From an uncultured Candidatus Peribacteria bacterium (GTDB lineage: Bacteria; Patescibacteriota; Gracilibacteria; UBA1369; UBA12470), in assembly GCA_964538865.1 (NCBI GenBank), contig CAZIHU010000006.1, forward strand, positions 26,059 through 66,058: a stretch of DNA of 40,000 bases, read 5' to 3'. Shown one piece after another: positions 6,001 through 31,516 of the stretch (position 1 is the stretch's first letter; every line of letters starts with the position of its first letter). A model generated the notes under the pieces. The model was not told the DNA's origin. It saw only the letters and a program-made list of their open reading frames with translations, and searched no databases. The translations under genes and the position numbers were made by a program.

Positions 6001-6678
6001 ACAGTAACATCCGATGATGACGATGAAGAAGTTGAAGAAGCCGAAGAAGGTGAAGGTGAAGGTGAAGAAACCAGCGACGAATCCGGATGGACATCATCAG
6101 AACACGATGAAATAGATGAGGATGAGGATGAAGAAGAAATAACAACCGACTATGAAGACCACTGGGCAAAGAGCTACATCGAAACAATTATCGAAGCCGG
6201 CATTGCATCAGGCCTAGACGAATACACATTCATGCCTGACAACGCCTTAACTCGCGCAGAAATGACGAAGATGATTGTACTCGCATTCGAATACAACATC
6301 CAAGAGGACCTCATCTCAACCGTCTTCCCTGACGTAGACCCTGAAGAGTGGTATGCACCTTATGTAGAAGCAGCTTACGTCAACGGACTTGTCAGCGGAT
6401 ATCCTGACGGAACATTCCAGCCAGGCAACAACATCAACAGGGCTGAAGCGATGAAAATCATCGTCGAAGCTTATCTCACAGATGAAGAAGTCGACGCCAT
6501 CGTAACCGCCACACTACCATTCCCTGACGTAGAACCGGATGCATGGTATACACCTTACATCACCTACGGATATTTGGAACATATAGTAAGCGGATATGAA
6601 GACGGCACTTACGGTCCTGCAAACAATGTTACTCGCGCCGAATTCAGTAAGATAATTTCAAACTTACTGCAGTTATAA
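1..6678 (+). CDS. Giant S-layer-type surface protein, 5'-partial (Ig-like, CarboxypepD_reg-like and FN3 modules plus 3 C-terminal SLH repeats)
   Basis: Frame 1 is open from nt 1 (LVIVLNDVDLIEGPNIEITVSAFNNVSEKV precedes the ATG at 91), and no signal peptide follows M91, so the gene probably starts upstream of the window. Motifs read in the translation: SbsA/Big_5-like Ig modules (..EYMIVVDGLKDAKGNDL; ..NNTEYTVSFPNVTDAYGF); carboxypeptidase-regulatory-like beta-sandwiches (GTISGKVINSATSEGVEGVPVFV..DGTYSFTGLP; VTVVDPGGDPVENAWVEAFD); one FN3 (PPSAPTGLSGSATSSAVTLDWNDN..YYYAITAVDTSHNES); a D/E-rich linker; and three SLH repeats at the C-terminus. Confidence 0.85.
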   Translation, partial: LVIVLNDVDLIEGPNIEITVSAFNNVSEKVMSTWAEEVGGGGQPTNILFNPHLSFQTAILTVETSTIANKTDNTVACDIQVIKAALNGSPTCYDTSTATVNGLAGGITVDFILQGDSTIGNFGYTDGNLIIGLSDTNPVTTSLDNLSVDLANTGSVTESFNDFQQNGINYAQYKNTDADWSDMTTAITAPLTAGAGIDTSGLTTACPVDAMFDGKTCLNQTGFDFTGGDIKQTASLDAIVVGNTGNQLILVWDDNNVIIDKFGLSLEVPQLDIAKPATLGNFIDIGGGGGGGGENKYQPFHEFTGTSVMLLGGASIDAGKQTACNQEIQDILGFFAGGELVCYQNSLVTNVSGDSLQGHISANNVWALVDQNTIMPGESGIAVIFSMPDIAFGTDSLSITVDGTAYSTWGWDDGMTEDDWDPVMMGSDDNVWFQGSFIPWEVGTNLKTATMMWSGPLNTATVNTSVFKLYDSDWNSKTISVTSTTLESGETVVDIALPPVLSDDTEYMIVVDGLKDAKGNDLNYEQLNFWTNSAFNTDSGSQMMYSWPGDNESGIDPLMPEIGIGFDYSKPITSTGTGTITPSVSGTTYEIDPMYNEILVYLGEALANNTEYTVSFPNVTDAYGFTSSAEITFTTGQASTDAPQINWVDFYTGTDSGGTIMGGEVTMGFNMALNSAAKEGENWTLVCDGGATLPSTTLEGKAVEYNSNEWMVTIFDPGIPENANNCTITAGAAIKGLNNVAFSTNESTGPPMQEFSYFDETWAGDFGNMMDFGCMGDCGLDDKFMDAGFMAFGGMIEFEPSTTIAGKVAEEIWFSTSISQELKTGYILEITLPSGATLDDSKLEIHGQYNINGKVIWFDSDNATYSSTTKKIKIPIKIDSDGDGNADTGDSGGKLSNFQLDGIIGGSCFTNPATASEYDWETGNGGGYAVFGITDSLGKTTESIGNSTPYSVGATGDGTISGKVINSATSEGVEGVPVFVESWKTGEFETTTASDGTYSFTGLPTAESVGSSYGVDYFVGIDPKEGYVVTTADNFIYLDSSNKTETNLDFNVNPADVTASVTFTTPDHPVKNDLVVEAFNWMNNQFAMKEITIPANQTETVVEIGISNGDWEICAHPDQGVEMKGGGGMDMGTGMAMHMMIPCVNIYVGEGESTTTASIGVEQSDGTINVTATDTSGSAISNTTVFAYNPWSGMGGGDCTTNDQGTCSINVVSNEQYTVLMDRNGSMQEKSVYVPSGDPVSVTFQGKSQGIVISGNVLAEGSSSAWIQTWDDWGFYAGTEANTETGAWALSVPDNTTLYVEAWGDWGQLTGSGVYVTNGQHEITISGDNVSSINFVKDSANSVTLSGSTSPAIEGMTICADERYISTGEYGYNFNCTSTNSSGEFSLVVAKTTGTTAYEIIGYSMNYGDLYYDSWVEATTDVSNIVMSAGDMNEVTINITGNPGLNEAFLDIFDPNTGRWAGQQVMLSNLSSKTVTLYVDDGTYDVWLWTQLGGFNPSDSNGNPKLTINEDTTINFTLGEISNDLIEMTVTVVDPGGDPVENAWVEAFDYETNTFIGGETDSSGEFTDWVAPGSNLKIRADHWNYSSKKISVTKEELETNPNVALTLGGQKSSTITINVTTGSGSSVTDFWGDVTDGEFWNGAPLIGATQIAVPDLDGELTVFINAINGDYLETTASVGDTVSVTYPTDFTTGADWLGTDAEPAIQSGDENGVSLKDTDNGIELDASTGLLNGDFTITAQTVGNLPGKTGGEVTPLLGKQIILKDANGTVTTDTSATYNTTFTMDDNQLEGMIANNELTIDGFAGLNIGYWSANNTWVVETTSRTAEVKLTSGDSWTAEEMTTLITNLKANTDYYYDYRIKLTAIGLDHFTIFSPITGSDSTPPSAPTGLSGSATSSAVTLDWNDNSEGDLLEYEIYRSTTTPVPLEDANQVNTSAVTSSTFTDSTVTAGTTYYYAITAVDTSHNESTSLEANVAVPAEDDDTPVVIVITPSATGGGTASTVTSDDDDEEVEEAEEGEGEGEETSDESGWTSSEHDEIDEDEDEEEITTDYEDHWAKSYIETIIEAGIASGLDEYTFMPDNALTRAEMTKMIVLAFEYNIQEDLISTVFPDVDPEEWYAPYVEAAYVNGLVSGYPDGTFQPGNNINRAEAMKIIVEAYLTDEEVDAIVTATLPFPDVEPDAWYTPYITYGYLEHIVSGYEDGTYGPANNVTRAEFSKIISNLLQL
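6151..6675 (+). other. Three tandem S-layer-homology (SLH) repeats, the cell-wall anchoring module of the CDS above
   Basis: DHWAKSYIETIIEAGIASGLDEYTFMPDNALTRAEMTKMIV / FPDVDPEEWYAPYVEAAYVNGLVSGYPDGTFQPGNNINRAEAMKII / FPDVEPDAWYTPYITYGYLEHIVSGYEDGTYGPANNVTRAEFSKII. These match the classical SLH pattern (aromatic-rich helix, G.(P/E)DGTF.P...(I/V)TRAE). Confidence 0.85.
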
Positions 6679-6736: not shown

Positions 6737-7030
6737 TTACTCAAGCTCAACCTTAATCCCTCCAACTTTCCCCGCAACAATATTATAGATGAAAGCTCCA
6801 AGCGCACCTGCGATATAACCAATAATAAATCCTACGATTGCCCCTACAATCATCGCTCCAAGAGCCACAATCACCCCAAATCCAGTACCTTCAAAGCCCA
6901 AAAGCGGCCCAATCAAGGAAAATACAAGCGTCAAAGCTCCCCCTAGAGCATACATAGCCGCAAAAATTGTAGCCTGAATCTTCGCGACCGACCCCACATC
7001 GAGACTTTTTACAGTTTTCATTTCTGCCAT
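6737..7030 (-). CDS. Small glycine-rich integral membrane protein (hypothetical)
   Basis: The 97-aa ORF has an ATG start and 2-3 hydrophobic G/A/I-rich segments (FAAMYALGGALTLVFSLIGPLLGF; GVIVALGAMIVGAIVGFIIGYIAGALGAFIY). It has its own extended -10 promoter, the A-rich AAAAACAAAC-ATG start context seen at other genes here, and the terminator directly downstream. The overlapping plus-strand ORF 6725..6946 has an implausible composition. Confidence 0.6.
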   Translation of the reverse strand: MAEMKTVKSLDVGSVAKIQATIFAAMYALGGALTLVFSLIGPLLGFEGTGFGVIVALGAMIVGAIVGFIIGYIAGALGAFIYNIVAGKVGGIKVELE

Positions 7031-7064
7031 GTTTGTTTTTGTTAAATTTTACAAACTAAGAAAA

Positions 7065-7073
7065 ATCATACCA
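7065..7073 (-). promoter_or_regulatory. Extended -10 promoter element (TGgTATGAT) for the small membrane protein gene
   Basis: The minus strand reads ..gttttgTGGTATGATttttc.., 35 nt upstream of the ATG at 7030. There is no good -35 (TCGAAC-like), which is typical for extended -10 promoters. Confidence 0.4.
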
Positions 7074-7082
7074 CAAAACATC

Positions 7083-7369
7083 GATGTTCGATACTTGAAT
7101 GTGGAATTTGGAGGTTGGAAGCTCGAATATGGAATCTGGAATTTGGAATCTCGAAGCTCGAATCTGGGATCTCGATGTTCGAATCTCGAAGCTCGAAGCT
7201 CGAATCTCGAATCTGGGATCTCGATGTTCGAATCTCGAAGCTCGAAGCTCGAATCTCGAATCTGGGATCTCGATGTTCGAATCTCGACATTCGACATTCC
7301 AAATTCCAAATTCCACATTCGACATTCAACATTCCACATTCGACATTCCAAATTCCATATTCAGCATTC
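7083..7369. repeat. In-register heptanucleotide tandem array, 41 units (GAANNTC to NANATTC types)
   Basis: Read unit by unit, the 7-nt register is unbroken over 287 bp. There is no stop codon in any of the six frames. The left end (GAATGTG GAATTTG) is the reverse complement of the right end (CAAATTC CACATTC). Confidence 0.95.
7160..7285. repeat. 49-bp (7x7) higher-order tandem repeat inside the heptamer array, about 2.6 copies
   Basis: GAATCTG GGATCTC GATGTTC GAATCTC GAAGCTC GAAGCTC GAATCTC starts at 7160, 7209 and 7258. The third copy is truncated after 4 units. The copies look identical by eye. Confidence 0.9.
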
Positions 7370-7383
7370 AAAACCACCGCAGA

Positions 7384-7477
7384 GGTTTTTGTTCATTTTG
7401 CGAAAACATCTGCAGGCTTCTGTTAATCGGATCTCGATTAACAGAAACGAAGCCGTTTGAGCAAAATAACAAAAACC
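7384..7477. repeat. Nested long-hairpin intergenic element, copy A (terminator-like or structured 3' element)
   Basis: The outer arms GGTTTTTGTTCATTTTGC (7384..7401) and GCAAAATAACAAAAACC (7461..7477) pair. The inner hairpin CTGTTAATCG-GATCT-CGATTAACAG (7420..7444) is a perfect 10-bp stem, and GGCTT/AAGCC pairs lie between. The right arm ends 5 nt from the CYTH stop codon (7483). The sequence resembles copies B and C. Confidence 0.7.
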
Positions 7478-7482
7478 GACAT

Positions 7483-8037
7483 TCAACATTCGAACTTCAA
7501 ATTACAAATATCAACCTCTGGCCACCTCTGCGCAAACAGCCGAAAAGCAGTTTCACAACTAATCTCATAATCCCCTAGCCCAAGCTTTTCCACCATCCCA
7601 TACACCTCATCCTCGGAAGCCCCCTCAATCTCTGCATAACAAATCCCTCCCGGATATTCATCAATATCAATATGCACGCCATCAACATCATACGAAGTTC
7701 GCTTTTTTTCACAATACAAGGTCTCGACCAATCCAACCTCTTTCAAAATCGCACAAGCAACTTCCGCATCATCCACCAACGTCTGAACTTCCGAACGAAC
7801 CTTGCATCGACCACTTTCCTCCTTCGGCCCCTTGTAGGCAAACTCAACAATCGTTTCTCCAATCGACCTCACTCGAATAAGTTTACCATCCGCACGAAGC
7901 CGCTTATCCGGATAATCAAAATGCCGAACAATCATCAGCCCATCCGGCAGTCTCTTTCCGCCAACATCAATTACCGCTTTTTCAAGCGATTCTTTTTCAA
8001 TACCGAGGACTTTGATTTCAATTTCTTTGTTAGGCAT
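7483..8037 (-). CDS. CYTH-domain protein (triphosphate tunnel metalloenzyme / class IV adenylate cyclase CyaB-like)
   Basis: The N-terminal EIEIK matches the ExExK hallmark. It is followed by LIRVRS..EFAYKGP..CKVRSEVQT..LKEVGL..EKKRTSYDV..VHIDIDEYPG..YAEIEG, which fits the conserved R.R / K / R.E.E / K.R / D.D / E.E tunnel residues of CYTH proteins. The start is ATG. The last ~7 codons are encoded by heptamer-repeat sequence. Confidence 0.8.
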   Translation of the reverse strand: MPNKEIEIKVLGIEKESLEKAVIDVGGKRLPDGLMIVRHFDYPDKRLRADGKLIRVRSIGETIVEFAYKGPKEESGRCKVRSEVQTLVDDAEVACAILKEVGLVETLYCEKKRTSYDVDGVHIDIDEYPGGICYAEIEGASEDEVYGMVEKLGLGDYEISCETAFRLFAQRWPEVDICNLKFEC

Positions 8038-8072
8038 TAGGCATTAGGGTTGATAATAGTTTACTACAAACG

Positions 8073-8147
8073 TTTTGCGAAGCAAAACTTCACAGACGCC
8101 GAATAGGCGTCAAGCATAATATCAACCGTTTCTGCGAAGCAGAAACA
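8073..8147. repeat. Cluster of three short perfect hairpins (two with a GCGAAGC core) downstream of yhhQ
   Basis: GTTTTGC-GAA-GCAAAAC (8073..8089), GACGCC-GAATA-GGCGTC (8096..8112) and GTTTCTGC-GAA-GCAGAAAC (8129..8147). Confidence 0.8.
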
Positions 8148-8156
8148 CCAATCACT

Positions 8157-8184
8157 GCAATCTGCAAGTTGCAAGTTGCAAACT
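8157..8184. repeat. Heptamer array TGCAATC TGCAAGT TGCAAGT TGCAAAC (4 units)
   Basis: Read directly. It ends 5 nt from the yhhQ stop codon (8190). Confidence 0.85.
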
Positions 8185-8189
8185 AAAAA

Positions 8190-9408: not shown

Positions 9409-9517
9409 AACAATATTCGTTACGGGCACGTAATTTATCACAATTTTAGCGAAAACAGCAAAGCACTTGTCCCGCGAAGCGGGGAAAACACCACAGATGC
9501 CGCCAGACATCAAGCAG

Positions 9518-9548
9518 CGCTCGAAGAGCCCGCCTGCCGGCAGGCAGG
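9518..9548. repeat. 31-nt GC-rich palindromic element, copy A (core GCCTGCCGGCAGGC)
   Basis: CGCTCGAAGAGCCCGCCTGCCGGCAGGCAGG is identical to 14531..14561. The perfect 14-nt palindrome is at 9532..9545. It lies about 80 nt 3' of the stop of the 9627..13931 gene and acts as a likely terminator-type hairpin. Confidence 0.8.
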
Positions 9549-9590
9549 CGCAATACTAATAACCCGTTTTGCGATAGCAAAACTCCACCC

Positions 9591-9632
9591 ACTAGGGACT
9601 AGGTACTAAGTACTAAGTACTAGGTACTACCC
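9591..9632. repeat. Heptamer array ACTAGGG ACTAGGT ACTAAGT ACTAAGT ACTAGGT ACTACCC (6 units)
   Basis: Read directly. The last unit contains the stop codon (CTA at 9627..9629 on plus, TAG on minus) of the giant gene. It is preceded by the hairpin GTTTTGC-GATA-GCAAAAC (9566..9583). Confidence 0.9.
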
Positions 9633-12149
9633 CAGTCTATCAATCATCCCCTTCTCCACCTCATGCTGCTTTCGTGCTTTCTTGTAGAGAATGAACGCAC
9701 CTGCAAGCACGAGTAGAGAAACTCCAATCAACGGTAAATATGGAAATTTGTCTTCTTCTTCGGCTTCAGCCGCAACCGGATGTGTGCCTTCAACATCCGC
9801 CACACTGGTCAGCCCCTCAGCACCAACTGTGAAGTTCACCATCATCGTTTCACCTTTTACACCTTCTTCATCTTCTGGATACATATAAACAACGTGTTCC
9901 CCCGGCTCATCATAAAGCTCGCCCGGCGCCTCAACGATGAACTCACCGGTCTCAATATCAGCAACAAGCACAGACGACAACGTCATACTTTGCCACGTCG
10001 CATAAACTATCGATCCCGGCTCCGTCTTACCAGCAACAGATTCCGAATTTACAAACTCCTCAACCTCAACCTTCGCAGCTTCAATCTCCTTATCAACTTT
10101 AAAAGTACTAACAGTCGATATATCAGTAGCATTTCCATCCTCATCAGCCACAACTATCATCATCTGATATTCTCCACTTTCCAGAAGCTCCTCATCAATA
10201 TTCGCAGCAACTTTACCTTGAGCATCAGCAGTAGTTTCTACAGTAGCCACAGGATTTCCATCCGCATCCAAAACCATAATCACAGCAGTCGAATCAGGCT
10301 CCGCCACCGCTTTTACAAAAACATCAGATGTATAAACCTCATCTTCCTTCATATTCGTAACACTAGCCTTAATTTCCTCAACATAATCCACGCTATTCGG
10401 ATCCATACCATACTCAATCTCCTCAATATCCGTAAACCCATCTCCATCCGAGTCAGCACTAGCAGGATCAGTCCCGTTCTTTATCTCCATATAGTCACTC
10501 ACCCCATCGCCATCGCTATCGGCTGATTCCGCATACACATCCGTATCAACTTCCACAATATTATCCTTTTCTGTCGGAGAAGTACCCGCCGCTAATTCAT
10601 CCACATCCGCAATACCATCACCATCCGTATCATAACTCAATGGATCCGTACCAAGATATTGCTCCATTGTATCGCTCACACCATCACCATCCGAATCCGA
10701 ATCGGTAGGATCCGTACCGCTCACATACTCATCGTAATCGCTCACACCATCCTCATCTGTATCAAGTGCCTTCGCAGTTTCAGCATCGATATCCATATCA
10801 ACCTCCAATATATCTAGCATCCCGTCACCATCGCTATCAGAAAAAGCCTGCTCTATCACCTCTGCTACTTCTTTTTCTACAAAATCTTGTACCGCTTCTA
10901 TAGTTTCTTCTGATTCAAAAATCACTGCCGCACTTTTTTGTAAAACAAGAGGTTCTTGCGTGTCTATTTCGACCTCTATCACAATTTCCTCCTCACCCTC
11001 AACTATAGTTAAAGTTGCCAAACCTTGCGCCAAATCTATCATCTCTGCTGCTTTTTCAACAACCACTTCAGTCTCCTCTTCGACCACCTCCTCCTCCGGA
11101 GCAGCCTCATATGCCTCCACTACCGGCTGATAATATATAACTTCAGCAGGTTCTTCTTCGACAATCTCTTCGTAAACCTCCTCGGAAACCTCTATCTCCA
11201 CTCCTGTTGGAAGCCAGACTGTCTCCTCCTCTTCCTCAGAATCATCCGCGACCGTCTCAACAACTTCGTCACTCTCTTCAGTTGATTCTTCCTCGCCTGC
11301 CAAAACCGTGTCAGATTCCTCTTCAGAAGAAGATTCCGTCGTTGATGTGTCGCTTGTGAATTCGCTTGATTCTGTCGAAGTTGATGTCGAAGAATCCCCA
11401 CCTCCGCCTCCTCCGCCTCCCCCACCTGTCGCAGCTCCAAAATAAGGATCATCCGTATCCTCGGTAGTAAATGTAGAAGTACTGCTCGTCAAACTATTCC
11501 CAAAATCATCAACAGCTTTTACATAAAAATCATAACCGGTCCCTTCAGAAAGGCCCGTAATAACCATGCTGGTTGTTGTCATCGTTGTATCTTCACCATA
11601 CAGAGCGTAAGAAGCAGCACTGGAAAGCTTGTAATAAACCTGATATTTATTCCAATTGGTCTCGGTTGTTATAGCATCCCAGCCTAGTGTGAATGAATCG
11701 TAAGTCATTCCTGCACTTGAGAGGGTTGTGAGCCCCCCTGAAGGCGCCACATTATCAAGTGTGAATGTTGTTCCGGTGCCTGTTGTTCCCGTCCCTGTAC
11801 CATCATAAATAAGTACTCTGAACTGGGCCGTCGAAAGATCTGCAGTTGCTTCATCAGTAGCGCTAGCCCAAGTTGCTGTTATCGTATTTACTCCTGATGA
11901 TGTTGTGATATATCCATTGCTATTTCCCAGCTGATGGACATTGTCGTTTTCGACATTGAAATTGCCATATGTTGCTGACGTTCCACTCGTCTCGGACATC
12001 GTAGCTTTGGTCCAACTACCTCCTGCGTAATACTCAACATAAGCCTGCAGAGTATCGTCGTCGTCTGCATCGTCCACCACCATAGAAATCGTCACCTGTC
12101 CACTCCCATCGGTTGCCCCTGTACCCGTTACACCCGAGATTGTCGGCAC
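9627..12149 (-). repeat. Shared C-terminal cassette (aa 595-1434), copy in paralog 1
   Basis: From VPTISGVTG.. to the stop, it is collinear and highly similar to aa 1285-2145 of the 14661..21083 gene. Long identical nucleotide runs include 9638..9695 = 14669..14726 (58 nt) and about 49 nt starting at 11651 = 16747. Confidence 0.9.
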
Positions 12150-13931
12150 CGTATTAAAACTCCAGTTCGTATTAAACCCACCATCATTCGAGTTATCCCC
12201 GGGATCTATCGCACTACCGCCACTCGCATCGGAATACCAAACATCCACCCAATCTATACTCGTCGATCCATTAACAATCAAATTCCACACGGAAGCAGCA
12301 GTACTATTAAGCTCTATTAAATTGCCATCAGCACCTGTTAACGTAAACGTACCACCCACACCCATAGTTTGCGTTGATCCTGCGGTAAAATTTATATTTT
12401 TATCCGCTGTAGTACATGTGAAATCATAAAAAGTTGTGTTTCCGGCAATAGTTGATTGCTGAGTTGCATCATTAAAAGTAACCGTCCCTTGTTGAGCCGT
12501 AAAAGTATCACTATTTGTAAAATTATGACCGATTGTGAGGTCATAATGCGAACCGGTCACATCTAGCGTCCCTGCCGTAATGGTCAAATCATTTGCTATC
12601 ACAAGATTCGAACCAGCACTAACAGTATTACCGGATGAATTAATAACAACATTATAAAGAGTATCCGTTATTTCCAAATTAGCAGTACCCGTCAAAGTAA
12701 TCGTGCCATCATTATGCGTAAAAGTTCCCCCATACTGCGCAAAATTAGCTGCCACAGTCGTTATACTGGAAGTAGCCGTATACACCCCACTATCTAGCCT
12801 AAAACTACCATTGATTGGACGAGAACCACTATCCGAAAGCGTATCCACAGCATCAGTCATATTCACCTTTAACCCAAAATACGTCCAATCTTTAAGCGTA
12901 TAATCAGTCTGCGACGCATCCCCATTCCCAACATACTCAACAGTCCCACTATTCGTATCATTAGTTAAATTAATCGTTTCATTCCCTAGAATCCGCAACG
13001 TACCGTTATTACTAAAAGTACCACCTGTCGCAGAAAGCGTATTACCGGCAGTAGCAAGAATCCCTGCAGTAATAGTGAGATCCTGACTCGCCGCATCCAT
13101 ATTCAAATCAGATGCAAGAATAACCGATCCACCAGCTTTATTAACCGATATCACAACATCCAAATTATCCGACGCATCACCATCAACGTTCAAATCAAAA
13201 GTTTGATTCGCACTAGGATGTGTGAAATTAAGAAGTGCACTACCACCGGCATCAGCACCCATCAATACACTCACATTACCTTGTGCATTTAAGGTCCCAT
13301 TATTGGCAATACCATTATCAAATATCAAAGTCCCCAAAACATTTATCGTGTCTCCACTAAAAGCAAGTGTCCCGTTTTTCTTAATAGTCAAATTATAAAA
13401 CGTTTCCGATGAATCAACATCCCATGTCGCACTATTACCATCCGCATAAACAGAACCGTTATTATGATTAAAAGTGCCACCAGCCGTATGCGTAAAAGCA
13501 CCCTCAATATCCATTATGCCTGAAGTTGAAGTAAAAACACCTCCACTTAAAGTCCAAGTACCATTAATAGAAAACCACGTATTACCACCAACAAAATTTC
13601 CATCTGCTTGATCATAACCACTGGCACCTAACAAAACCTCTACGCCAGTCGCCTGCGTAATAGTTTGGGTATAACCGGAATTAATATCAATCCCACCAAC
13701 ATTGATATTCGCATCAATCGTACAATTAACATCCCCGGTCCCATCAAACGTCGCCACATCACCAGTCCCTGGCGCTGTCCCACCAGCCCAATTCCCATCT
13801 GTACTCCAATCATTATCAACATCTCCTTCCCAAACTATAGCCGCAGCCCACGCTGTCTGAGCAGAAAACAAAACCACGCTCGAAATAGCGATCAATAACG
13901 TTGCTTTCAAAATTCGGCACAAGTTTTTCAT
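9627..13931 (-). CDS. Giant surface adhesin-like protein, paralog 1 (signal peptide, beta-helix passenger, FN3, TSP3-type Ca-binding repeats, Ig-like domains, C-terminal membrane anchor)
   Basis: The ATG start is followed by a signal peptide (MKNLCRILKATLLIAISSVVLFSAQTAWA). The N-terminus IVWEGDVDNDWSTDGNWAGGTAPGTGDVATFDG plus long G/T/N-rich repeats is typical of parallel beta-helix passengers. An FN3-like module follows (LDNVAPSGG..YDFYVKAVDDFGNS), then poly-Gly, an E/V-rich acidic spacer and DxDxDG repeats (DSDGDGVSDYDEY..DTDGDGIADVDE..). It ends in a hydrophobic anchor plus KKARKQ tail. Confidence 0.9.
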   Translation of the reverse strand: MKNLCRILKATLLIAISSVVLFSAQTAWAAAIVWEGDVDNDWSTDGNWAGGTAPGTGDVATFDGTGDVNCTIDANINVGGIDINSGYTQTITQATGVEVLLGASGYDQADGNFVGGNTWFSINGTWTLSGGVFTSTSGIMDIEGAFTHTAGGTFNHNNGSVYADGNSATWDVDSSETFYNLTIKKNGTLAFSGDTINVLGTLIFDNGIANNGTLNAQGNVSVLMGADAGGSALLNFTHPSANQTFDLNVDGDASDNLDVVISVNKAGGSVILASDLNMDAASQDLTITAGILATAGNTLSATGGTFSNNGTLRILGNETINLTNDTNSGTVEYVGNGDASQTDYTLKDWTYFGLKVNMTDAVDTLSDSGSRPINGSFRLDSGVYTATSSITTVAANFAQYGGTFTHNDGTITLTGTANLEITDTLYNVVINSSGNTVSAGSNLVIANDLTITAGTLDVTGSHYDLTIGHNFTNSDTFTAQQGTVTFNDATQQSTIAGNTTFYDFTCTTADKNINFTAGSTQTMGVGGTFTLTGADGNLIELNSTAASVWNLIVNGSTSIDWVDVWYSDASGGSAIDPGDNSNDGGFNTNWSFNTVPTISGVTGTGATDGSGQVTISMVVDDADDDDTLQAYVEYYAGGSWTKATMSETSGTSATYGNFNVENDNVHQLGNSNGYITTSSGVNTITATWASATDEATADLSTAQFRVLIYDGTGTGTTGTGTTFTLDNVAPSGGLTTLSSAGMTYDSFTLGWDAITTETNWNKYQVYYKLSSAASYALYGEDTTMTTTSMVITGLSEGTGYDFYVKAVDDFGNSLTSSTSTFTTEDTDDPYFGAATGGGGGGGGGGDSSTSTSTESSEFTSDTSTTESSSEEESDTVLAGEEESTEESDEVVETVADDSEEEEETVWLPTGVEIEVSEEVYEEIVEEEPAEVIYYQPVVEAYEAAPEEEVVEEETEVVVEKAAEMIDLAQGLATLTIVEGEEEIVIEVEIDTQEPLVLQKSAAVIFESEETIEAVQDFVEKEVAEVIEQAFSDSDGDGMLDILEVDMDIDAETAKALDTDEDGVSDYDEYVSGTDPTDSDSDGDGVSDTMEQYLGTDPLSYDTDGDGIADVDELAAGTSPTEKDNIVEVDTDVYAESADSDGDGVSDYMEIKNGTDPASADSDGDGFTDIEEIEYGMDPNSVDYVEEIKASVTNMKEDEVYTSDVFVKAVAEPDSTAVIMVLDADGNPVATVETTADAQGKVAANIDEELLESGEYQMMIVVADEDGNATDISTVSTFKVDKEIEAAKVEVEEFVNSESVAGKTEPGSIVYATWQSMTLSSVLVADIETGEFIVEAPGELYDEPGEHVVYMYPEDEEGVKGETMMVNFTVGAEGLTSVADVEGTHPVAAEAEEEDKFPYLPLIGVSLLVLAGAFILYKKARKQHEVEKGMIDRLG

Positions 13932-14088: not shown

Positions 14089-14499
14089 ATGCGTACTTCA
14101 GATCAACCAAGCTACGATGACCTTGAATACCCTCTGGAAGTAACTATCGAAGGCATCGATCAACAAAATGCCCAAGCAGCATGGGCCAAACTAGCAGAAG
14201 AAACTCATTATATAGACCAAACACTGCGAGGCCCCAAGCACACATTTTATTGCACCAATGACTCCCCAGATCCAAGTAAAGCTGGCTATTTTATTGGGAT
14301 TTTTGCTCCAGGTAGTGACCCAAACAAAGACGCTAGTTTAGTTGACTTATTTCTTGTACAAAACGAGGATGGAACACTCAGCGTAATCCAGCCAAATGTA
14401 AACGCCGAACTCGGAGAAACCAGCTTATTAGCCCAGGAAATAGATCCCTTCCTGGATCAAATTGCAAACAGCACCCGGAAACATTCGGAAGAAGGATAG
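14089..14499 (+). CDS. Hypothetical protein (136 aa)
   Basis: It has an ATG start, a consensus promoter upstream and a GC-rich palindrome downstream. It is the only complete plus-strand gene in the window. I recognise no family. Confidence 0.6.
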   Translation: MRTSDQPSYDDLEYPLEVTIEGIDQQNAQAAWAKLAEETHYIDQTLRGPKHTFYCTNDSPDPSKAGYFIGIFAPGSDPNKDASLVDLFLVQNEDGTLSVIQPNVNAELGETSLLAQEIDPFLDQIANSTRKHSEEG

Positions 14500-14530
14500 A
14501 GACAGAGAACGAAGCGATCCCCGAGCCCAA

Positions 14531-14561
14531 CGCTCGAAGAGCCCGCCTGCCGGCAGGCAGG
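14531..14561. repeat. 31-nt GC-rich palindromic element, copy B
   Basis: Identical to 9518..9548, with the core palindrome at 14545..14558. It lies between the convergent genes 14089..14499 (+) and 14661..21083 (-) and is a likely bidirectional terminator hairpin. The flanking U-tracts are weak. Confidence 0.8.
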
Positions 14562-14573
14562 GCGAAAAACAAT

Positions 14574-14657
14574 CATATCCCACATTCCACATTCAAAATT
14601 CAACATTCGACATTCCACATTCAAGATTCGAAATCCGAAATCCGATATTCCAAATTC
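14574..14657. repeat. Heptamer array, 12 units of the NNNATTC family
   Basis: CATATCC CACATTC CACATTC AAAATTC AACATTC GACATTC CACATTC AAGATTC GAAATCC GAAATCC GATATTC CAAATTC. It is in register and ends 3 nt before the stop codon at 14661..14663. Confidence 0.9.
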
Positions 14658-14660
14658 CAA

Positions 14661-17246
14661 CTACAGTTTATCAATCATCCCCTTCTCCACCTCATGCTGC
14701 TTTCGTGCTTTCTTGTAGAGAATGAATGCACCTGCGATTACTAAGAGAGAAACTCCTATCAATGGTAAATATGGGAACTTATCTTCTTCTTCAGCTGCTG
14801 GATGTGTACCATCCGCTTCCATCGCACTGGTCAATCCTTCCGCACTCACCATAAAATTAACCTGCATCGTTTCTCCTTTCACACCTTCTTCATCTTCGGG
14901 ATAGAAATATGCCGTATGTTCTCCAGGTTCATCGTAAAGTTCTTCCGGTGCTTCAACTACAAATTCACCGGTCTCCATATCAGAAACAAGTACTGACGAT
15001 AACGTCATACTTTGCCATGTTACATAAACTATCGATCCTGGCTCTGTTTTACCTGCTACTGCATCTTCTTCGACTTCAACTTCTTCTACTGTTGCAGCTT
15101 CGATCGTCTTATCCACTGTAAACGATGTCATTGTTGAGACGTCGGTTGCGTTACCGTCTTCGTCTGCAACTACTATCATCATTTGATATTCCCCGCTTTC
15201 AAGCAGTTCTTCATCGATGTTTGCAGCTACTTTACCATTGGCATCTGCGGTTGTTTCTATTACCGCTACAGGGTTGCCTTCTGCGTCTACCACTGTAATA
15301 AGGGCTGTTGAATTAGGCTGAGCAGTCGCTTTCACAAACACATCTGAAGTGTATGTTTCGTCCGCTTTCATGTTTGTTACGCCCGTCTTCATTTCTTCGA
15401 TGTAATCTACCTGATTTGGGTTAGTTCCGTATTCAAGCTCTTCTATGTCTGAAAGTCCATCTCCATCTGAGTCTGTACTGTTTGGATCTGTTCCGTTTCT
15501 TGTTTCCATTGCGTCACTCATTCCGTCTCCATCACTATCTTTGTATTCGTCTCCTTTTTTTTCTATAACTATCGGGTTGTCTTTCTCTGTTGGTGAAGTT
15601 CCTGCGGCTAGCTCATCTACGTCCGCGATACCATCTCCATCTGTATCGCTGCTTGATGCGTCTGTACCGAGAAGTTGTTCCATTGCGTCTGTCATTCCGT
15701 CTCCATCGCTATCGGAATCTGTTGGGTCTGTTCCGTTCATATACTCTGTGTAATCGTCCACACCATCACCGTCTGTATCGGTCTCTTTTGCCGTTTCTGC
15801 ATCCATATCTGTATCAAGCTCGAGGATGTCGAACATCCCATCTCCATCTTCATCTGCGAATGCTTGTTCTAGTACCTCTACCACGTCTACTGTTGGTTCT
15901 GTACTCATTTCCGCGATTTCTTCTGCTGCTTTGGCAAATTCTTCTACTATCTCTTTTTGTTCTTCCATGTCGCGTGGCTCAAACAACGTTGCTGCGCTTT
16001 GCTTCTCAAGCTCTATCTCTTGCTCTAAATCGATTTCTATCTCGATTGTAATATCTTCTCTTCCTTCTTCGGTTAGTGTCAAAGTTGCCAAGCCTTCTGC
16101 CAAATCTATTACTTCGATTGCTTGTACTGGTACTTGGATCTCTTCAACTTCTTCGGGGGTTTCTTCTTCAGCAGGAACCTCTTCGATCACTTCCAGAGCA
16201 GGCTCTTCATATGTCACAACCGTTGGTTCGTAATACACAGGTTCTTCTTCAGCAACTTCCTCATAGACTTCCTCGGGGACTTCTACTTCTACTCCTGTTG
16301 GGAGCCAGACAGACTCTTCTTCAGAATCGTCTGCTTCTTCAGCAGCTTCGTGACTCTCCTCACCGGATTCTTCTTCACCTGCCAAACTCGTATCAGAAGA
16401 AGATTCCGTCGTTGATGTGTCGCTCGTGGACGTGTCGCTTGTGGAATCGCTCGTGGACGTATCGCTCGTGGATGTCGAAGTCGATGAATCTCCTCCACCA
16501 CCGCCGCCTCCTCCACCTCCACCGGTCACAGCTCCAAAGTAAGGATCATCCGTGTCCTCGGTTGTGAATGTAGAAGTACTACTCGTCAAACTATTTCCAA
16601 AATCATCTACTGCTTTTACATAAAAATCGTATGCAATTCCTTCACTCAATCCAGTTATAGCCATACTGGTTGTTGTCATCGTTGTATCCTCTCCGTACAA
16701 AGCATAAGAAGCATCGCTGGATACTTTGTAATAAACCTGATATTTGTTCCAATTGGTCTCGGTTGTTATAGCATCCCAGCCTAGTGTGAATGAATCATAA
16801 GTCATACCTGCGCTTGAGAGGGTTGTGAGTCCTCCCGATGGTGCAACATTATCAAGTGTGAATGTTGTACCGGTACCTGTCGTTCCCGTACCTGTCCCGT
16901 CATAAATAAACACTCTGAACTGCGCTGTCGAAAGGTCGGCAGTCGCTTCATCTGTTGCACTAGCCCAAGTTGCCGTTACTGTATTTGGCGTGACTGACGT
17001 CGTGATATATCCATTACTGTTACCAAGTTGATAGACGTTATCGTTTTCGACATTGAAATTGCCGTACGTAGCGCTCGTTCCGCTTGTTTCTGACATCGTA
17101 GCTTTCGTCCAGCTACCACCTGCGTAATACTCAACTACAGCCTGCAGAGTATTGTCACCATCTGCATCGTCTACCGCCATCGAAACCGTCACTCCTCCAG
17201 TTCCATCGGTAGACTGAGCACCTGTTACTGTTGTAATCGTCGGGAC
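14661..17246 (-). repeat. Shared C-terminal cassette (aa 1285-2145), copy in paralog 2
   Basis: See 9627..12149. Similarity begins at VPTITTVTG.. (V codon top at 17246) and runs to the stop codon. Confidence 0.9.
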
Positions 17247-20200
17247 CTGGTTTGTGCTGACAATAATCGCTTTGTTTGCACTGAGTGAGTTTGTTTCTCC
17301 GGGAGTTGCAAGTGTCAGTGTGGCTGTGTTGCCTGCCAAATCTGTTATTGTCCCAGAATTCAAGGTCAAAGCACCTGTACTTGTATATGCTAAATCCGAA
17401 ACGTTATCTCCGTTTACCGTTGTATATGTGAATGAAAGTGTGTCTGTACTTACGCTAGCATAATTTGCTTGTCTATCTGTTCCATCAAAGTCTAATTCTA
17501 TTTGTGGTGTTCCGGTCACAGCCATATTCTCATCGAACTGTACTGTCACCGTAAGCTCAATAGCTACTCCATAAGTATCATTTGCATTTGTTGCTGTGAC
17601 ATCACTAACACTCGGTGCACTTACATCGTACGTTGTTGTATCGTTTGTTGTAGAAGATTCTACTGCACTGCCATCCTTAATCTTAGCTGTTATTGTTTTG
17701 AGCTCCTCCGTGGTTGTACAGCCAGTCGCCCCGGTTGTCATATCCCAAGCTGGACCGTCCCCGTCATTTACGACATCGTCATCCGGGTATGTTATCCAGC
17801 TACTCCAGTTACTACCAGCATCACAAGAAAACGCCACATCTGTTGCTGTAGAACCGCTCGTAACAAGCGTGATTTGCGGTGTTGTGTCGTTTGTAAATCC
17901 ACTAGCGTTGTTGTCGTTGATTGTTACAGATGTAAGGAATGGATATAAGGTTTTCGAAAGAGTACCAGCTGACCCAGCTACTGCACTACCATCAGCTGCA
18001 CCACCTGCAGCTACTCCTCCTGCAGTGAGATTTGTTACAAGCGAATCTGTATCCGCACCATATTGAATAGCAATTCGTCCTCCTCCTCCTCCTCCACCAT
18101 CATTCGTTGATCCATTACCTCCAGCACCACCATCTGCAGAGAATGTCCCCGTTGCACCACCATCTTCAATAACTGACCCAGCAGTGACATAAATCGATCC
18201 TCCAGATCCTCCTCCACCAGCCTGATTACTACCATTTGTAGCCCCAACCCCACCATCTGCAATAATAGCTCCGTTATGAGTCAAAACTCCATTAATTACT
18301 AACCTTAGATATCCTCCACCATTACCCCCTCTAAAACTAGTAGTAGAATTACCTCCAGATGATCCAAACAACACTGGTGCCGTAGAAGATCCATACGTTG
18401 CACCACCACTAACCACGCCTGTATGAGAACCATCTCCACCTTCACCTCCATGACCACCTCCTTGATATCCCTGACCAGAATTATTACCGTCTCCCCAACC
18501 AGCAGTATCCATCGCACAAACATTTGAGCTATCTGGCCCATATCCATTATGAGAACCAACATTTACACATCCTTTACCAGTCGCATCAATTGATGCACCC
18601 GACTCAATAGCAAGATCTACCAGCGCAGTCCATTGCGCATTAGCAATGATTGCAGTCGTCCCTGCAAGAGTTATATCTATAGCATCATCTATCGTAAACC
18701 ATCCTTCAGGCCCACCGGTAAAAGTAAAATTGGTCCAAGTCTGATCATCCCCCGCAGGAATATTAAAATCCACATCTGCCCCTTGCCCTGCAACAGAAAA
18801 TGTAGTTCCACTACCCACTGTCAAAGCCGTACCAGCAGACAAGTTAAAAGAAGTAATTGTTGTTAAATCACATGAAAGGGTCCCATCCCAAGCCAAAGTT
18901 CCAGTCACCGTAACCGAAGGTGTTACCGTTCCAGACTCACAATACATATTGTCTGCACCAGCATCTATAGTCCAATTAGTTTCGCTATGATCTGTATCAT
19001 CAAAAGTAAACCCATAATAAATATTTACAGCACTTGATCCTGTGTTTTTTACATATACTGTACCTATTACACCTGCTACAGCACTGCCATCAGCCGCACC
19101 AGCTGCAACTGTAAAATCTTCACTTCCAAGACCAGAGAAAGTACTTGAGCCATAGTTAAGTGAAATACGACCTCCTCCGCCTCCTCCTCCATCATTAGAT
19201 GATCCATCACCCCCATCTCCCCCATCTGCAGAGAATGTTCCTGTGCTACCAGCAAATGCTCCAGTAACAGTAATATAAACAGAACCTCCAGATCCACCTC
19301 CTCCAGCCTGACTACTACCATTTGTAGCTCCAACTCCACCATCTGCAGTAATTACACCATTGTGTGTAAAATCCCCACTTATTGCCAATCTGACATATCC
19401 TCCACCATTACCCCCTCTAAAACTAGTAGTAGAATTACCTCCAGACGAACCAAACAACACAGGAGCCGTAGCAGACCCATATGTTGCTCCACCATCAACC
19501 ACACTTGTATGAGAACCATCTCCTCCTGCACCTCCATGACCACCCCCTTGATATCCATTACCGGAGTTATTACCGTCTCCCCAACCAGCAGTAGAAATTG
19601 TACAAACATTGGAACCATCTGGACCATATCCATTATGAGTACCTATATTCACACAACCTTTCGCATCCGCAACAATAGATGCACTTGCACCAATAGTAAG
19701 GTCGACAAGAGCAGTCCACTGCGCATTTGCTGTAATCGTAGTTGTACCAGCAAGATCAATATCTATCGCATCATCTATTGTAAAAAGTCCTTCAGCTCCC
19801 TCGGTAAAAGTAAAGTCAGTCCAAGTCTGGTCATCCCCCGCGGGGATATCAAAATCTACATCTGCACTATCCCCTGCAATTGATATAACTGTCCCACTAG
19901 CAATAGTAAAAGCCGTACCACCTGAAAAATTGAATGAAGTTATTGTTGTTAAATCACATGAAAGCGTCCCATCCCAAGCCAAAGTCCCAGAAGCTGTAAC
20001 CGAAGGTGTTGCCGTTCCAGACTCACAATACATATTGTCTGCACCAGTATCCACAGTCCAGTTGGTCACACTGTGATCTGTATCATCAAAAGTAAATCCA
20101 TGATAAACATTTACAGCATCTACCCCTGTGTCTTTGACGTAGACTGTACCTACAGTCCCAGCAACAGCACTGCCATCAGCCGTACCAGCTGCAACCGTAA

Positions 20201-21083
20201 GATCTTCACTTCCAAGACCAACAAATGTGCTAGATCCATAAGTCAGAGAAATACGACCTCCTCCGCCTCCACCACCATCATGAACACCACCATCAGCACC
20301 ATTCCCCCCGTCGGCAGAGAATGTTCCTGTGCTGCCAGCGAATGCTCCAGTAACAGTAATATAAATCGATCCTCCACTACCTCCCCCTGATGAGGTATTA
20401 CTTCCACCTGTAATACCAGCACCCCCATCTGCACTAATTACACCATTGTGCGTAAATGCACCACTAATATTTAACCGTACATATCCTCCACCAGAACCAC
20501 CATTTGTACTCGCTGCACTACCACCAGATGACCCGAATAACACAGGCGCTGTAGCTGATCCATAAGTATCTCCGAACTGATCCATATTCGATCCAGCTCC
20601 TCCTTCTCCTCCATGTCCAGCACCTTCAGCTCCTACATTACCCATATTCCAACCTTTCCCGTATCCGGCAGTTTGAGAAGTACAAACATTGGAACCATCT
20701 GGACCCCAACCATGCGAAGTCCCCGTATTATCACAACCCTTAGCATCTGTATTAATACTTGCCCCACTCTCAATCTCAAAGTTCCCCGTAGTTGAAATAT
20801 TTATCCCATCTGCATCTTCAGCAACATGAGTCAAAACCACTCCAGTCTCAATAAGCACAGAAGCAGCTGTAATCGCAGCATCCAGTTCACAATACCCATC
20901 TCCACCAGAATCCGAAAAAGTTACATCATCCGCATTCAAATCCCCTTCAGTCACAGCAGTCGGCGAACCGGAAGTTCCCGAACAATTAACCGTCACTGGA
21001 GCTGCACTCGCACTAGACACTCCCCACAGCAGAGCCACAACTGTGATCCCAAACAAAACCGATGCTTTTAGGAGTTTTTTCAT
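14661..21083 (-). CDS. Giant surface protein, paralog 2 (signal peptide, 3 x ~360-aa Gly-rich tandem modules, Ig-like domains, shared C-terminal cassette and anchor)
   Basis: The ORF track starts at GTG 21098. The ATG at 21083 gives a textbook signal peptide (MKKLLKASVLFGITVVALLWGVSSASA), and the promoter -10 sits at 21102..21107, so I prefer 21083. An Ig-like adhesin module follows (..TGALTLNSGTITDLAGNTATL..), and the C-terminal 861 aa are shared with paralog 1. Confidence 0.9.
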   Translation of the reverse strand: MKKLLKASVLFGITVVALLWGVSSASAAPVTVNCSGTSGSPTAVTEGDLNADDVTFSDSGGDGYCELDAAITAASVLIETGVVLTHVAEDADGINISTTGNFEIESGASINTDAKGCDNTGTSHGWGPDGSNVCTSQTAGYGKGWNMGNVGAEGAGHGGEGGAGSNMDQFGDTYGSATAPVLFGSSGGSAASTNGGSGGGYVRLNISGAFTHNGVISADGGAGITGGSNTSSGGGSGGSIYITVTGAFAGSTGTFSADGGNGADGGVHDGGGGGGGRISLTYGSSTFVGLGSEDLTVAAGTADGSAVAGTVGTVYVKDTGVDAVNVYHGFTFDDTDHSVTNWTVDTGADNMYCESGTATPSVTASGTLAWDGTLSCDLTTITSFNFSGGTAFTIASGTVISIAGDSADVDFDIPAGDDQTWTDFTFTEGAEGLFTIDDAIDIDLAGTTTITANAQWTALVDLTIGASASIVADAKGCVNIGTHNGYGPDGSNVCTISTAGWGDGNNSGNGYQGGGHGGAGGDGSHTSVVDGGATYGSATAPVLFGSSGGNSTTSFRGGNGGGYVRLAISGDFTHNGVITADGGVGATNGSSQAGGGGSGGSVYITVTGAFAGSTGTFSADGGDGGDGSSNDGGGGGGGRISLNYGSSTFSGLGSEDFTVAAGAADGSAVAGVIGTVYVKNTGSSAVNIYYGFTFDDTDHSETNWTIDAGADNMYCESGTVTPSVTVTGTLAWDGTLSCDLTTITSFNLSAGTALTVGSGTTFSVAGQGADVDFNIPAGDDQTWTNFTFTGGPEGWFTIDDAIDITLAGTTAIIANAQWTALVDLAIESGASIDATGKGCVNVGSHNGYGPDSSNVCAMDTAGWGDGNNSGQGYQGGGHGGEGGDGSHTGVVSGGATYGSSTAPVLFGSSGGNSTTSFRGGNGGGYLRLVINGVLTHNGAIIADGGVGATNGSNQAGGGGSGGSIYVTAGSVIEDGGATGTFSADGGAGGNGSTNDGGGGGGGRIAIQYGADTDSLVTNLTAGGVAAGGAADGSAVAGSAGTLSKTLYPFLTSVTINDNNASGFTNDTTPQITLVTSGSTATDVAFSCDAGSNWSSWITYPDDDVVNDGDGPAWDMTTGATGCTTTEELKTITAKIKDGSAVESSTTNDTTTYDVSAPSVSDVTATNANDTYGVAIELTVTVQFDENMAVTGTPQIELDFDGTDRQANYASVSTDTLSFTYTTVNGDNVSDLAYTSTGALTLNSGTITDLAGNTATLTLATPGETNSLSANKAIIVSTNQVPTITTVTGAQSTDGTGGVTVSMAVDDADGDNTLQAVVEYYAGGSWTKATMSETSGTSATYGNFNVENDNVYQLGNSNGYITTSVTPNTVTATWASATDEATADLSTAQFRVFIYDGTGTGTTGTGTTFTLDNVAPSGGLTTLSSAGMTYDSFTLGWDAITTETNWNKYQVYYKVSSDASYALYGEDTTMTTTSMAITGLSEGIAYDFYVKAVDDFGNSLTSSTSTFTTEDTDDPYFGAVTGGGGGGGGGGGDSSTSTSTSDTSTSDSTSDTSTSDTSTTESSSDTSLAGEEESGEESHEAAEEADDSEEESVWLPTGVEVEVPEEVYEEVAEEEPVYYEPTVVTYEEPALEVIEEVPAEEETPEEVEEIQVPVQAIEVIDLAEGLATLTLTEEGREDITIEIEIDLEQEIELEKQSAATLFEPRDMEEQKEIVEEFAKAAEEIAEMSTEPTVDVVEVLEQAFADEDGDGMFDILELDTDMDAETAKETDTDGDGVDDYTEYMNGTDPTDSDSDGDGMTDAMEQLLGTDASSSDTDGDGIADVDELAAGTSPTEKDNPIVIEKKGDEYKDSDGDGMSDAMETRNGTDPNSTDSDGDGLSDIEELEYGTNPNQVDYIEEMKTGVTNMKADETYTSDVFVKATAQPNSTALITVVDAEGNPVAVIETTADANGKVAANIDEELLESGEYQMMIVVADEDGNATDVSTMTSFTVDKTIEAATVEEVEVEEDAVAGKTEPGSIVYVTWQSMTLSSVLVSDMETGEFVVEAPEELYDEPGEHTAYFYPEDEEGVKGETMQVNFMVSAEGLTSAMEADGTHPAAEEEDKFPYLPLIGVSLLVIAGAFILYKKARKQHEVEKGMIDKL
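17980..20880 (-). repeat. Intragenic tandem repeat, three units of ~1.08 kb (360-362 aa)
   Basis: The marker motif DAKGC..GxGPDGSNVC recurs at aa 120, 480 and about 842. The string TCCAAGTCT recurs at 19820 and 18734, a period of 1086 nt. Units share ..YGSATAPVLFGSSGG..GGGYVRL.ISG.FTHNGVI.ADGG..GGGSGGS.YITVTGAFAGSTGTFSADGG..DGGGGGGGRISL.YGSSTF.GLGSED.TVAAG.ADGSAVAG..GTVYVK.TG..AVN.Y.GFTFDDTDHS.TNWT.D.GADNMYCESGT.TPSVT..GTLAWDGTLSCDLTTITSFN. The outer boundaries are approximate. Confidence 0.85.
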
Positions 21084-21101
21084 GTTCAATTTATTCACAT
21101 A

Positions 21102-31241: not shown

Positions 31242-31516
31242 TTGTTTTTGATGTTTGGTGTTTTCGCTGTCGCGAAAACGGGTTAATAATATGGCCCGGG
31301 AATCGCTTCGCTTTCTCGGGCTGTTAAAGTACTAATTATATACCATAAACGAGACCCGATTAACAGGAGTCCGGCTGGACAATCACACTGAGTGAGTGTG
31401 CGATAGCATTTTCCGCATTGACGCATGCCGAAATATGTCTTTGCATCTCATCCTCGCAACCACATCGCAACCGCGCGTGCCAAAATATGCTCCGCGTCTC
31501 TCACCACGCACAATAC

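Follow-up and report, generated by a model that had tools for sequence, protein, structure and literature searches.

Heptamer repeat arrays that abut stop codons in a Candidatus Peribacteria genome fragment

Among the long simple repeats of bacteria, heptamers are the commonest class, and both their cause and their role have been in question since 1990. We analysed a stretch of 40,000 nucleotides (nt) from an uncultured Candidatus Peribacteria bacterium (assembly GCA_964538865.1, contig CAZIHU010000006.1, positions 26,059 to 66,058), called the window below, in which arrays of tandem 7-nt units begin at the stop codons of several genes, and which extends heptamer repeats to the Candidate Phyla Radiation (CPR). 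The STRR families of cyanobacteria, described by Mazel and colleagues in 1990, reportedly have the units CCCCAGT, TTGGTCA and CAACAGT, with several intergenic families per genome and a copy number that varies. Heptads are also known as protein-binding sites. The omega ribbon-helix-helix repressor of pSM19035 occupies promoter operators of 7-10 WATCACW heptads, one dimer per heptad; these heptads are contiguous, either direct or inverted, and heptad arrays can be protein platforms.

The GGGAATC or (GGGANTN)n heptamers of Xanthomonas and the GGGGAYT heptamers of Nostoc (Rehm et al. 2015) are about 90% intergenic (89-93% in Xanthomonas), with a mean distance of 28 nt to the upstream open reading frame (ORF) and 160 nt to the downstream one (PMC4692102). 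In Xanthomonas, 70-75 inverted heptamer pairs were counted, heptamers are under-represented between divergent genes, unit positions 1-4 and 6 are conserved while 5 and 7 are variable, and length and sequence turn over fast among close relatives; a function was not found (PMC4692102). Proximity of heptamer arrays to the 3' end of the upstream gene has therefore a precedent, having been reported for Xanthomonas in the same paper (PMC4692102). The TAACTGA repeats of marine Beggiatoaceae (MacGregor 2015) form hundreds of intergenic sets of 2-6 perfect copies, which point to a start codon a few nt downstream and were proposed to be regulator sites in the 5' untranslated region (UTR); their units carry stop codons, so that arrays overlap gene ends slightly, and thirteen sets overlap the upstream stop (PMC4679880). 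As quoted in that paper, the survey of Mrazek, Guo and Shah (2007) found heptanucleotides to be the most abundant long simple-sequence repeats (SSRs) of prokaryotes and proposed polymerase slippage as their origin (PMC4679880). Our search of the literature on Peregrinibacteria repeats found nothing relevant, and the paper on complete Peribacteria genomes makes no mention of heptamer repeats.

The arrays of the window belong to this known class of heptameric long SSRs, which includes STRR and the Xanthomonas repeats and is found in many bacteria, here in Peregrinibacteria of the CPR. The assignment rests on their match to the published intergenic placement, distances, inverted pairs and turnover: they lie nearer the end of the upstream ORF and include an inverted pair. 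As to their origin, the explanation we prefer, in which we have about even confidence, is that slippage expanded them in the sole unconstrained DNA, and that contact with stop codons would result from short, eroding spacers together with stops supplied by the units themselves. Any explanation has to account for frequent starts within 2 nt of the stops of ordinary genes, for either orientation and for two variable positions in the unit.

The window has 44.5% G+C and its genes are mostly on the minus strand. Period-7 repeats cover 533 of its 2,797 intergenic nt and 14 of its 37,203 coding nt, and the same count for periods 5, 6 and 8-13 gives 0 intergenic nt covered; a chance origin of the period-7 pattern is excluded. 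As measured by Tandem Repeats Finder (TRF) and autocorrelation, the arrays contain from 4 to about 40 units, which are 7 nt long, repeated head to tail in several copies and located mainly in non-coding DNA. The arrays and the shorter runs of units are the following.

7086..7286, plus strand: about 28 units, GAATCTC/GAAGCTC and similar; opposite-polarity arm of an inverted double array; holds a 49-nt higher-order unit (7132-7287) and adjoins the promoter-like region of a 97-aa gene.
7287..7373, minus strand: about 12 GAATNTN units; distal arm of that inverted double array; the CYTH stop is 109 nt upstream.
7478..7498, minus strand: three imperfect units, GAAGTTC GAATGTT GAATGTC, that span the CYTH TGA; a weak case.
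8030..8048, minus strand: (TAATGCC)2.7 array at the right end of an inserted spacer; one unit gives the CYTH ATG.
8157..8184, minus strand: (TTGCARN)4 array, 5 nt past the Vut_1/yhhQ TGA; left end of the same 152-nt inserted spacer.
9591..9632, minus strand: (TACYTAG)6 array with the TAG of surface-protein paralog 1 (9627-9629) inside.
14574..14660, minus strand: direct array of 12-13 GAATNTN units, contiguous with the TAG of surface-protein paralog 2 (14661-14663), in a convergent spacer.
28084..28139, minus strand: (GAATNTN)8 array that shares its first G with the end of the ParE TAG (28139-28141).
28892..28961, minus strand: composite array, with GAGAAAT/CAGAAGT-type units first and then four of GAATNTN; the stop of an M16 peptidase gene is 92 nt upstream.

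The units of the window fall into at least five unrelated families (TTGCARN, TACYTAG, TAATGCC, GAGAART and GAATNTN). The arrays at 7086-7373 and 28892-28961 and the (TAATGCC)2.7 array at the CYTH start had been missed by an earlier note on this DNA.

Contact with the stop codons is direct. After paralog 2, the TAG is followed at once by TTGGAAT and then by twelve GAATNTN units; the TAG of paralog 1 is in phase with the TAG of each TACYTAG unit, the G of the ParE TAG opens a GAATTTG unit, and the CYTH TGA arises at a unit junction. When arrays were placed randomly inside their own spacers, 0.4 contacts within 5 nt of a minus-strand stop were expected, compared to 4 observed (4 of the 7 stop-facing sides), and none of the 20,000 simulations reached this number. 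Four of the six main arrays thus lie at most 5 nt from a stop, and none of the six lies within 5 nt of a start codon. The only array that spans a start codon is TAATGCC with its 2.7 units, and the largest array (7086-7373), which is the one inverted pair, lies away from stops, 55 nt from the next start and at the distance from the CYTH stop given above. The earlier note had claimed that arrays touch the stops of five minus-strand genes, and its coordinates and distances are correct; the CYTH case is weak, the units that span the TGA being just three and imperfect. It had also taken the arrays not to be random microsatellites, which agrees with their strictly intergenic location and with their enrichment at stops both in the window and in the unrelated metagenome contigs described below. 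The 7 GGA triplets it counted in the array after paralog 2 are reached only if the array is extended to 14660, with 6 in 14574-14657; these triplets (6-7) occur only where unit position 7 is G. A GGA-repeat RNA that titrates CsrA/RsmA, with GGA motifs in hairpin loops as in the CsrB/RsmY/RsmZ families, was considered and rejected, given no predicted structure and no Rfam family match in the window. The long repeat-encoded tails that it expected from the loss of a single stop would indeed be added to paralog 2 (67 codons), ParE (62) and yhhQ (41), while paralog 1 and CYTH would gain only 6 and 14.

In order to have a wider sample, metagenomes were scanned for 4.5 GAATNTN units, which gave at least 120 contigs with G+C contents from 21% to 70%. 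The values in this paragraph refer to 120 contigs among the matches listed, with arrays defined by TRF and genes by simple longest-ORF calls. Stop-facing sides within 5 nt of the array numbered 46 compared to 11.1 expected (p <5e-5), and start-facing sides 16 compared to 11.6 expected, which is not significant. Arrays of other units that co-occur on these contigs, and that were not selected for, also touch stops more often than expected (18 compared to 5.7). Array boundaries peak 0 +/- 2 nt away from the stop, and overlap of the stop with the first unit is common, as in TAG/AATTTTGAAT and TAA/ATTCCAAATTCC. Pfam domains were found in 9 of the 10 array-abutting ORFs tested, among them GTP cyclohydrolase I, Omp85, H+-pyrophosphatase, NADH dehydrogenase subunits and M48 peptidase, and some domains reach the C-terminus; these nine are real genes of diverse bacteria. 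Arrays are more frequent in convergent than in divergent spacers (28 compared to 12, p 0.017), and inverted array pairs are many. Orientation is mixed: 24 stop-adjacent GAATNTN arrays are sense and 18 antisense, and between co-directional genes the corresponding numbers are 20 and 24. Enrichment of arrays at 3' ends, as the earlier note had proposed, is thus borne out in both samples, while the strand relationship to the upstream gene that it saw does not extend to the wider sample, and in the window it may be confounded by a background skew.

The number of metagenome matches should not be read as a special status of GAATNTN, since it is due to the size of the database. In viral contigs used as control, GAATNTN and its period-8 version gave 73 matches each, compared to 112 for a permuted unit and at least 120 for the period-6 version. 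The idea of GAATNTN as a specially widespread motif was therefore rejected. The viral collection has no preference for period 7 and is uninformative on any bias in bacteria.

Comparison of the window and a 1.8-kb extension with the corresponding loci of four relatives (L007, L008, L009 and L010) shows that the arrays turn over quickly in unit, length and presence. On the shortest scale, the copy number of the 49-nt (7x7) unit is all that separates the window from six near-identical contigs, with 3 copies in the window and in L002, 2 in L001 and 1 in L005; all other spacers present are identical. These differences between assemblies from different samples are either real slippage polymorphism or assembly collapse. 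In the more distant relatives, the place after CYTH that holds about 40 GAATNTN-type units in the window is occupied by (GCKCAAG)4 from 9 nt past the stop in L009 and by (GCKCAAG)3 in L007. In the latter, a 165-nt insertion (5690-5855; compare L009 5562-5570) precedes the array, lying between the CYTH stop and the array and between TTTTGATTT direct repeats, and it looks like what a small mobile element would leave behind. The 152-nt spacer between yhhQ and CYTH (8038-8189) is missing in L007 (5140-5160), L008 (5570-5577) and L009 (5020-5030), where the two genes overlap (ATGAATGA). This insert has heptamer arrays at both ends and three tetraloop hairpins within, two of them with UUCG loops, and in the window the new ATG of CYTH is supplied by one of its TAATGCC units. 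Its flanks TGATTTTTAG ... AGTGATTGGT and a hairpin match the spacer downstream of CYTH in L007 and L009.

The units of L008, a Peregrinibacteria genome, are CCCTAYN with runs of C3-5 (2794-2826 and 4804-4837), so that the other strand is G-rich, and one of these arrays lies between a stop 26 nt upstream and the yhhQ start 5 nt downstream. We observe that CCCTAYN is closer than the units of the window to the quadruplex-capable units of Xanthomonas and Nostoc. No array was found in 20 kb of L010, and the L007 ortholog of paralogs 1 and 2 has the same ...KL-TAG end with no array behind it. As the same stops occur without an array or with other units in relatives, the stops are ancestral and the arrays lineage-specific. 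The comparison of orthologous loci, which the earlier note had suggested, hence shows conservation neither of unit sequence nor of array presence.

Four arrays in three spacers supplied 35 GAATNTN units in sense orientation for an analysis of unit sequence. No change was seen at positions 1, 3 and 4 and hardly any at position 6, position 2 is A or G, and variation falls almost wholly on positions 5 and 7 (chi-square p 1e-11). The unit family is present in four separate spacers of the window. GAATNTN arrays contain no G3 runs, and thus not the four or more G3+ tracts of a quadruplex-forming sequence. Single GAATNTN arrays in the window are sense in 4 of 4 cases, which is not significant alone. 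The plus strand of the window has 6291 G and 11504 C, a skew of -0.29, so that the minus strand, which is the sense strand of nearly all genes, is G-rich and C-poor throughout. On the plus strand, the skewed arrays have a C content of 30% and a G content of 5-9% over 56-87 nt, the same sign as this background. Sense orientation in the window can therefore be a by-product of background strand skew, perhaps not linked to the genes. A Rho utilisation (rut) site is typically about 60-80 nt of C-rich, G-poor, unstructured RNA; the arrays resemble it in composition on one strand alone, the antisense one with respect to the upstream genes. The C-rich strand also lacks stop codons, which is why mechanical ORFs of 87-143 aa traverse arrays (7029-7460, 14462-14725 and 28025-28366, all on the plus strand); spurious ORFs are easily called through arrays, and this is a risk for annotation.

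The genes of the window include giant TSP3/fn3 surface-protein paralogs, CYTH, the Vut_1/yhhQ transporter, a ParE toxin with its antitoxin and an M16 peptidase. The giant TSP3/fn3-repeat proteins form a cluster of proteins of 1,300-2,200 aa (91-6678, 9627-13931, 14661-21098, 21417-27851 and 35966-39994); two of them have in common a C-terminal membrane anchor ending ...HEVEKGMID(K/R)L, and a giant gene neighbouring the locus in L001 encodes an SLH domain. Identical copies of the yhhQ protein are found on about 20 metagenome contigs, and its identity to proteins from metagenome-assembled genomes of Candidatus Peregrinibacteria/Peribacteria is about 80%, which marks the host as a CPR bacterium. 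Searches of the whole window with Rfam at gathering thresholds and for tRNA/tmRNA gave no matches. Besides the arrays, the following features of the genes and spacers are needed below.

Stop at 14661-14663 (TAG), minus strand: surface-protein paralog 2, 2145 aa.
Stop at 9627-9629 (TAG), minus strand: surface-protein paralog 1, 1434 aa.
8072..8147, minus strand: three stem-loops immediately behind the yhhQ array, with a UUCG loop in two of them; terminator-like, no clear U tract.
9515..9548, no strand assigned: 34-nt GC-rich palindrome block, copy 1, downstream of paralog 1.
14528..14561, no strand assigned: 34-nt GC-rich palindrome block, copy 2, 12 nt beyond the end of the array at 14574.
27901..28111, minus strand: 211-nt block, with a direct duplicate at 28710-28920 of 97.6% identity.

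A spacer usually runs in the order stop, array, stem-loop or conserved block within about 8-12 nt, extended -10 like TGGTATAAT, A-rich leader and start codon. The array thus occupies whatever lies between the stop and the nearest element downstream of it. The stem-loops include GTTTCTGC-UUCG-GCAGAAAC and GTTTTGC-UAUC-GCAAAAC. Hairpins of the form GTTTTGC-NNNN-GCAAAAC or GTTTTCGC-NNNN-GCGAAAAC recur at 8072-8088, 9566-9583 and about 31250-31280, and also in the metagenome contig L121; their loops are often UUCG-type, and they could be a family of elements similar to repetitive extragenic palindromes (REP-like) or to terminators. The GC palindrome block (core CCTGCCGGCAGG) is conserved in 33 of 34 positions between its two copies and has no U tract after it on either strand; it is all that the spacers behind paralogs 1 and 2 have in common. 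The break of homology between the paralogs at the stop was also considered as a rearrangement junction, which was rejected since the paralogs are just 72-81% identical, a distance at which neutral flanks would have diverged in any case. Each copy of the 211-nt block ends in GAATNTN units, the pair brackets ParE and its antitoxin, and the fold of the block is weakly significant (z -1.96). The bracketing suggests that an array was already present when the toxin-antitoxin cassette arrived, by insertion into it or recombination at it.

Regarding structure, the inverted double array 7086-7373 folds as a hairpin of -129.6 kcal/mol (z -6.8) with no U tract, and the single array after paralog 2 has no significant RNA fold (z -0.8). 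None of the arrays has the GC-rich stem-loop with U tract of an intrinsic terminator; matches of the terminator scan fall solely on hairpins beyond the arrays, and the scans for sigma-70 and terminator consensus were not decisive. In the metagenome contigs L079 and L087, the stop, the array and a canonical terminator follow one another, so those arrays lie inside the 3' UTR. Among the matches listed, sequence downstream of arrays is not generally structured (mean z -0.55, with 12.5% below -2). Transcripts probably include the arrays, as the opening stretch of the 3' UTR. A strand-specific role there is not supported, and a dedicated function in termination, for which the earlier note had also argued, is at most putative, given the two orientations, no fold of single arrays and no conservation.

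Several other explanations have to be weighed. Arrays could be binding platforms for a putative trans-acting factor that recognises the 4+1-base core GAAT.T. once in each 7-nt unit; we regard this as unlikely and keep it as a rival because neither the position-specific variability nor the recurrence of the unit is explained by slippage. Such a factor might act on DNA as an omega/ribbon-helix-helix-like protein or on RNA as a KH, S1 or cold-shock protein, or it might be Rho on the C-rich, rut-like strand at gene ends. The fixed positions 1, 3 and 4 and near-fixed T6 across four arrays next to variable 5 and 7, the presence of the unit in four spacers, the comparable pattern of conserved and variable positions in Xanthomonas (PMC4692102) and the enrichment at 3' ends and in convergent spacers would all be consistent with a reader. 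However, with at least five unit families in the window and others in relatives, one reader cannot explain all arrays, no candidate protein was identified, and in viral contigs GAATNTN was no commoner than the permuted or period-8 unit. The random orientation in the wider sample argues against an RNA-level reader of the sense strand, and although one strand is rut-like in composition, in the window this strand is antisense to the upstream genes, which speaks against Rho. A more far-reaching form would make the arrays that start at stops a widespread selected gene-end element whose core (GAAT.T. or GGGA.T.) is read by such a factor, either a heptad-binding DNA protein or RNA binders of Rho/KH type, and which insulates neighbours both ways; the two free positions would then be tolerated noise. 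We find this improbable.

It is similarly doubtful that the upstream mRNA ends in or just past an array that acts as its termination or 3'-end element, or that the array stabilises this 3' end. Direct contact with stop codons, the hairpin of the inverted double array, the many inverted pairs among the metagenome contigs listed as well as the 70-75 of Xanthomonas (PMC4692102), and the stop-array-terminator order in L079 and L087 point in this direction. That order, however, also puts the arrays upstream of the real terminator, as passengers of the 3' UTR; single arrays are unstructured with no U tracts after them, the sequence downstream is on average unstructured, both orientations are found, no array follows the orthologous stop in L007, and the one strong hairpin of the window is 109 nt from a stop and adjoins the next promoter. 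A further possibility, to which we give comparably little weight, is that small mobile or copy-pasted modules of intergenic DNA, with gene ends as their insertion sites, carry the arrays or give rise to them at their own ends, in which case stop contact would mirror the choice of insertion site. One example is the array-bounded 152-nt insert, located exactly after the yhhQ TGA where the genes overlap in three relatives, with its flanks and hairpin shared with the CYTH-downstream spacer of L007 and L009; the duplicated 211-nt block with GAATNTN ends around ParE and antitoxin, and the 165-nt insertion of L007 between direct repeats, would also fit. But a transposase, terminal inverted repeats and a consistent target duplication were not found, the arrays of paralogs 1 and 2 share no flanks beyond the GC block, and most metagenome arrays are without module-like flanks. 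Moreover, unit sequence differs inside conserved flanks, which shows that the array turns over in place.

Under slippage-driven expansion, slipped-strand mispairing or unequal recombination would lengthen and shorten the arrays, for which the 49-nt unit at 1, 2 and 3 copies may be an example, and arrays would survive only in the unconstrained stretch from the stop codon to the next hairpin, GC block or promoter. An exact start at the stop could then have three causes: this stretch is short in a compact genome, deletion may remove the spacer between stop and array, and A/T-rich units can yield TAG, TGA and TAA at junctions. Single arrays would be unstructured filler, and inverted pairs would form long hairpins that may serve as terminators or stabilisers. 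Several points weigh against this explanation. Fixed positions 1, 3 and 4 with variable 5 and 7 are not predicted by slippage followed by neutral decay, nor does slippage explain the recurrence of GAATNTN in four spacers of one genome; the boundary peak at 0 +/- 2 nt is sharper than a simple model of free space would give; erosion of spacers is a presumed step and not an observed one; and the copy-number differences could be assembly collapse. If a reader protein exists, the arrays would be a general gene-end signal, and if not, they would be a clean case of mutation pressure filling the only free DNA of compact genomes.

In comparison to known systems, the arrays are like STRR in that several heptamer families are dispersed in intergenic DNA with copy numbers that differ by locus; the unit sequences differ from those of STRR1-3, and no homology or shared lineage is implied. 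For the omega operators, the likeness stops at the heptad, as a link to a promoter or to a heptad-binding protein is not shown for the arrays of the window. They share with the TAACTGA repeats an intergenic heptamer family with arrays that overlap upstream stop codons, but they are long, degenerate and stop-proximal, and are not placed forward and close to start codons. With the survey of Mrazek and colleagues they agree in that period 7 is the dominant class of long SSR and mostly non-coding; that survey reportedly did not include CPR genomes and addressed neither stop contact nor position-specific variability within the unit. The closest likeness is to Xanthomonas and Nostoc, with which they share intergenic 7-nt tandems, proximity to the upstream end, inverted pairs, similar conserved and variable positions and fast turnover. 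In contrast to those repeats, the units of the window are A/T-rich and have no G3 tracts, so that G-quadruplex formation is inapplicable, the host belongs to the CPR and several unit families coexist; and the contact with stops at 0-5 nt is quantified here, as it was not in Rehm et al. 2015 (PMC4692102).

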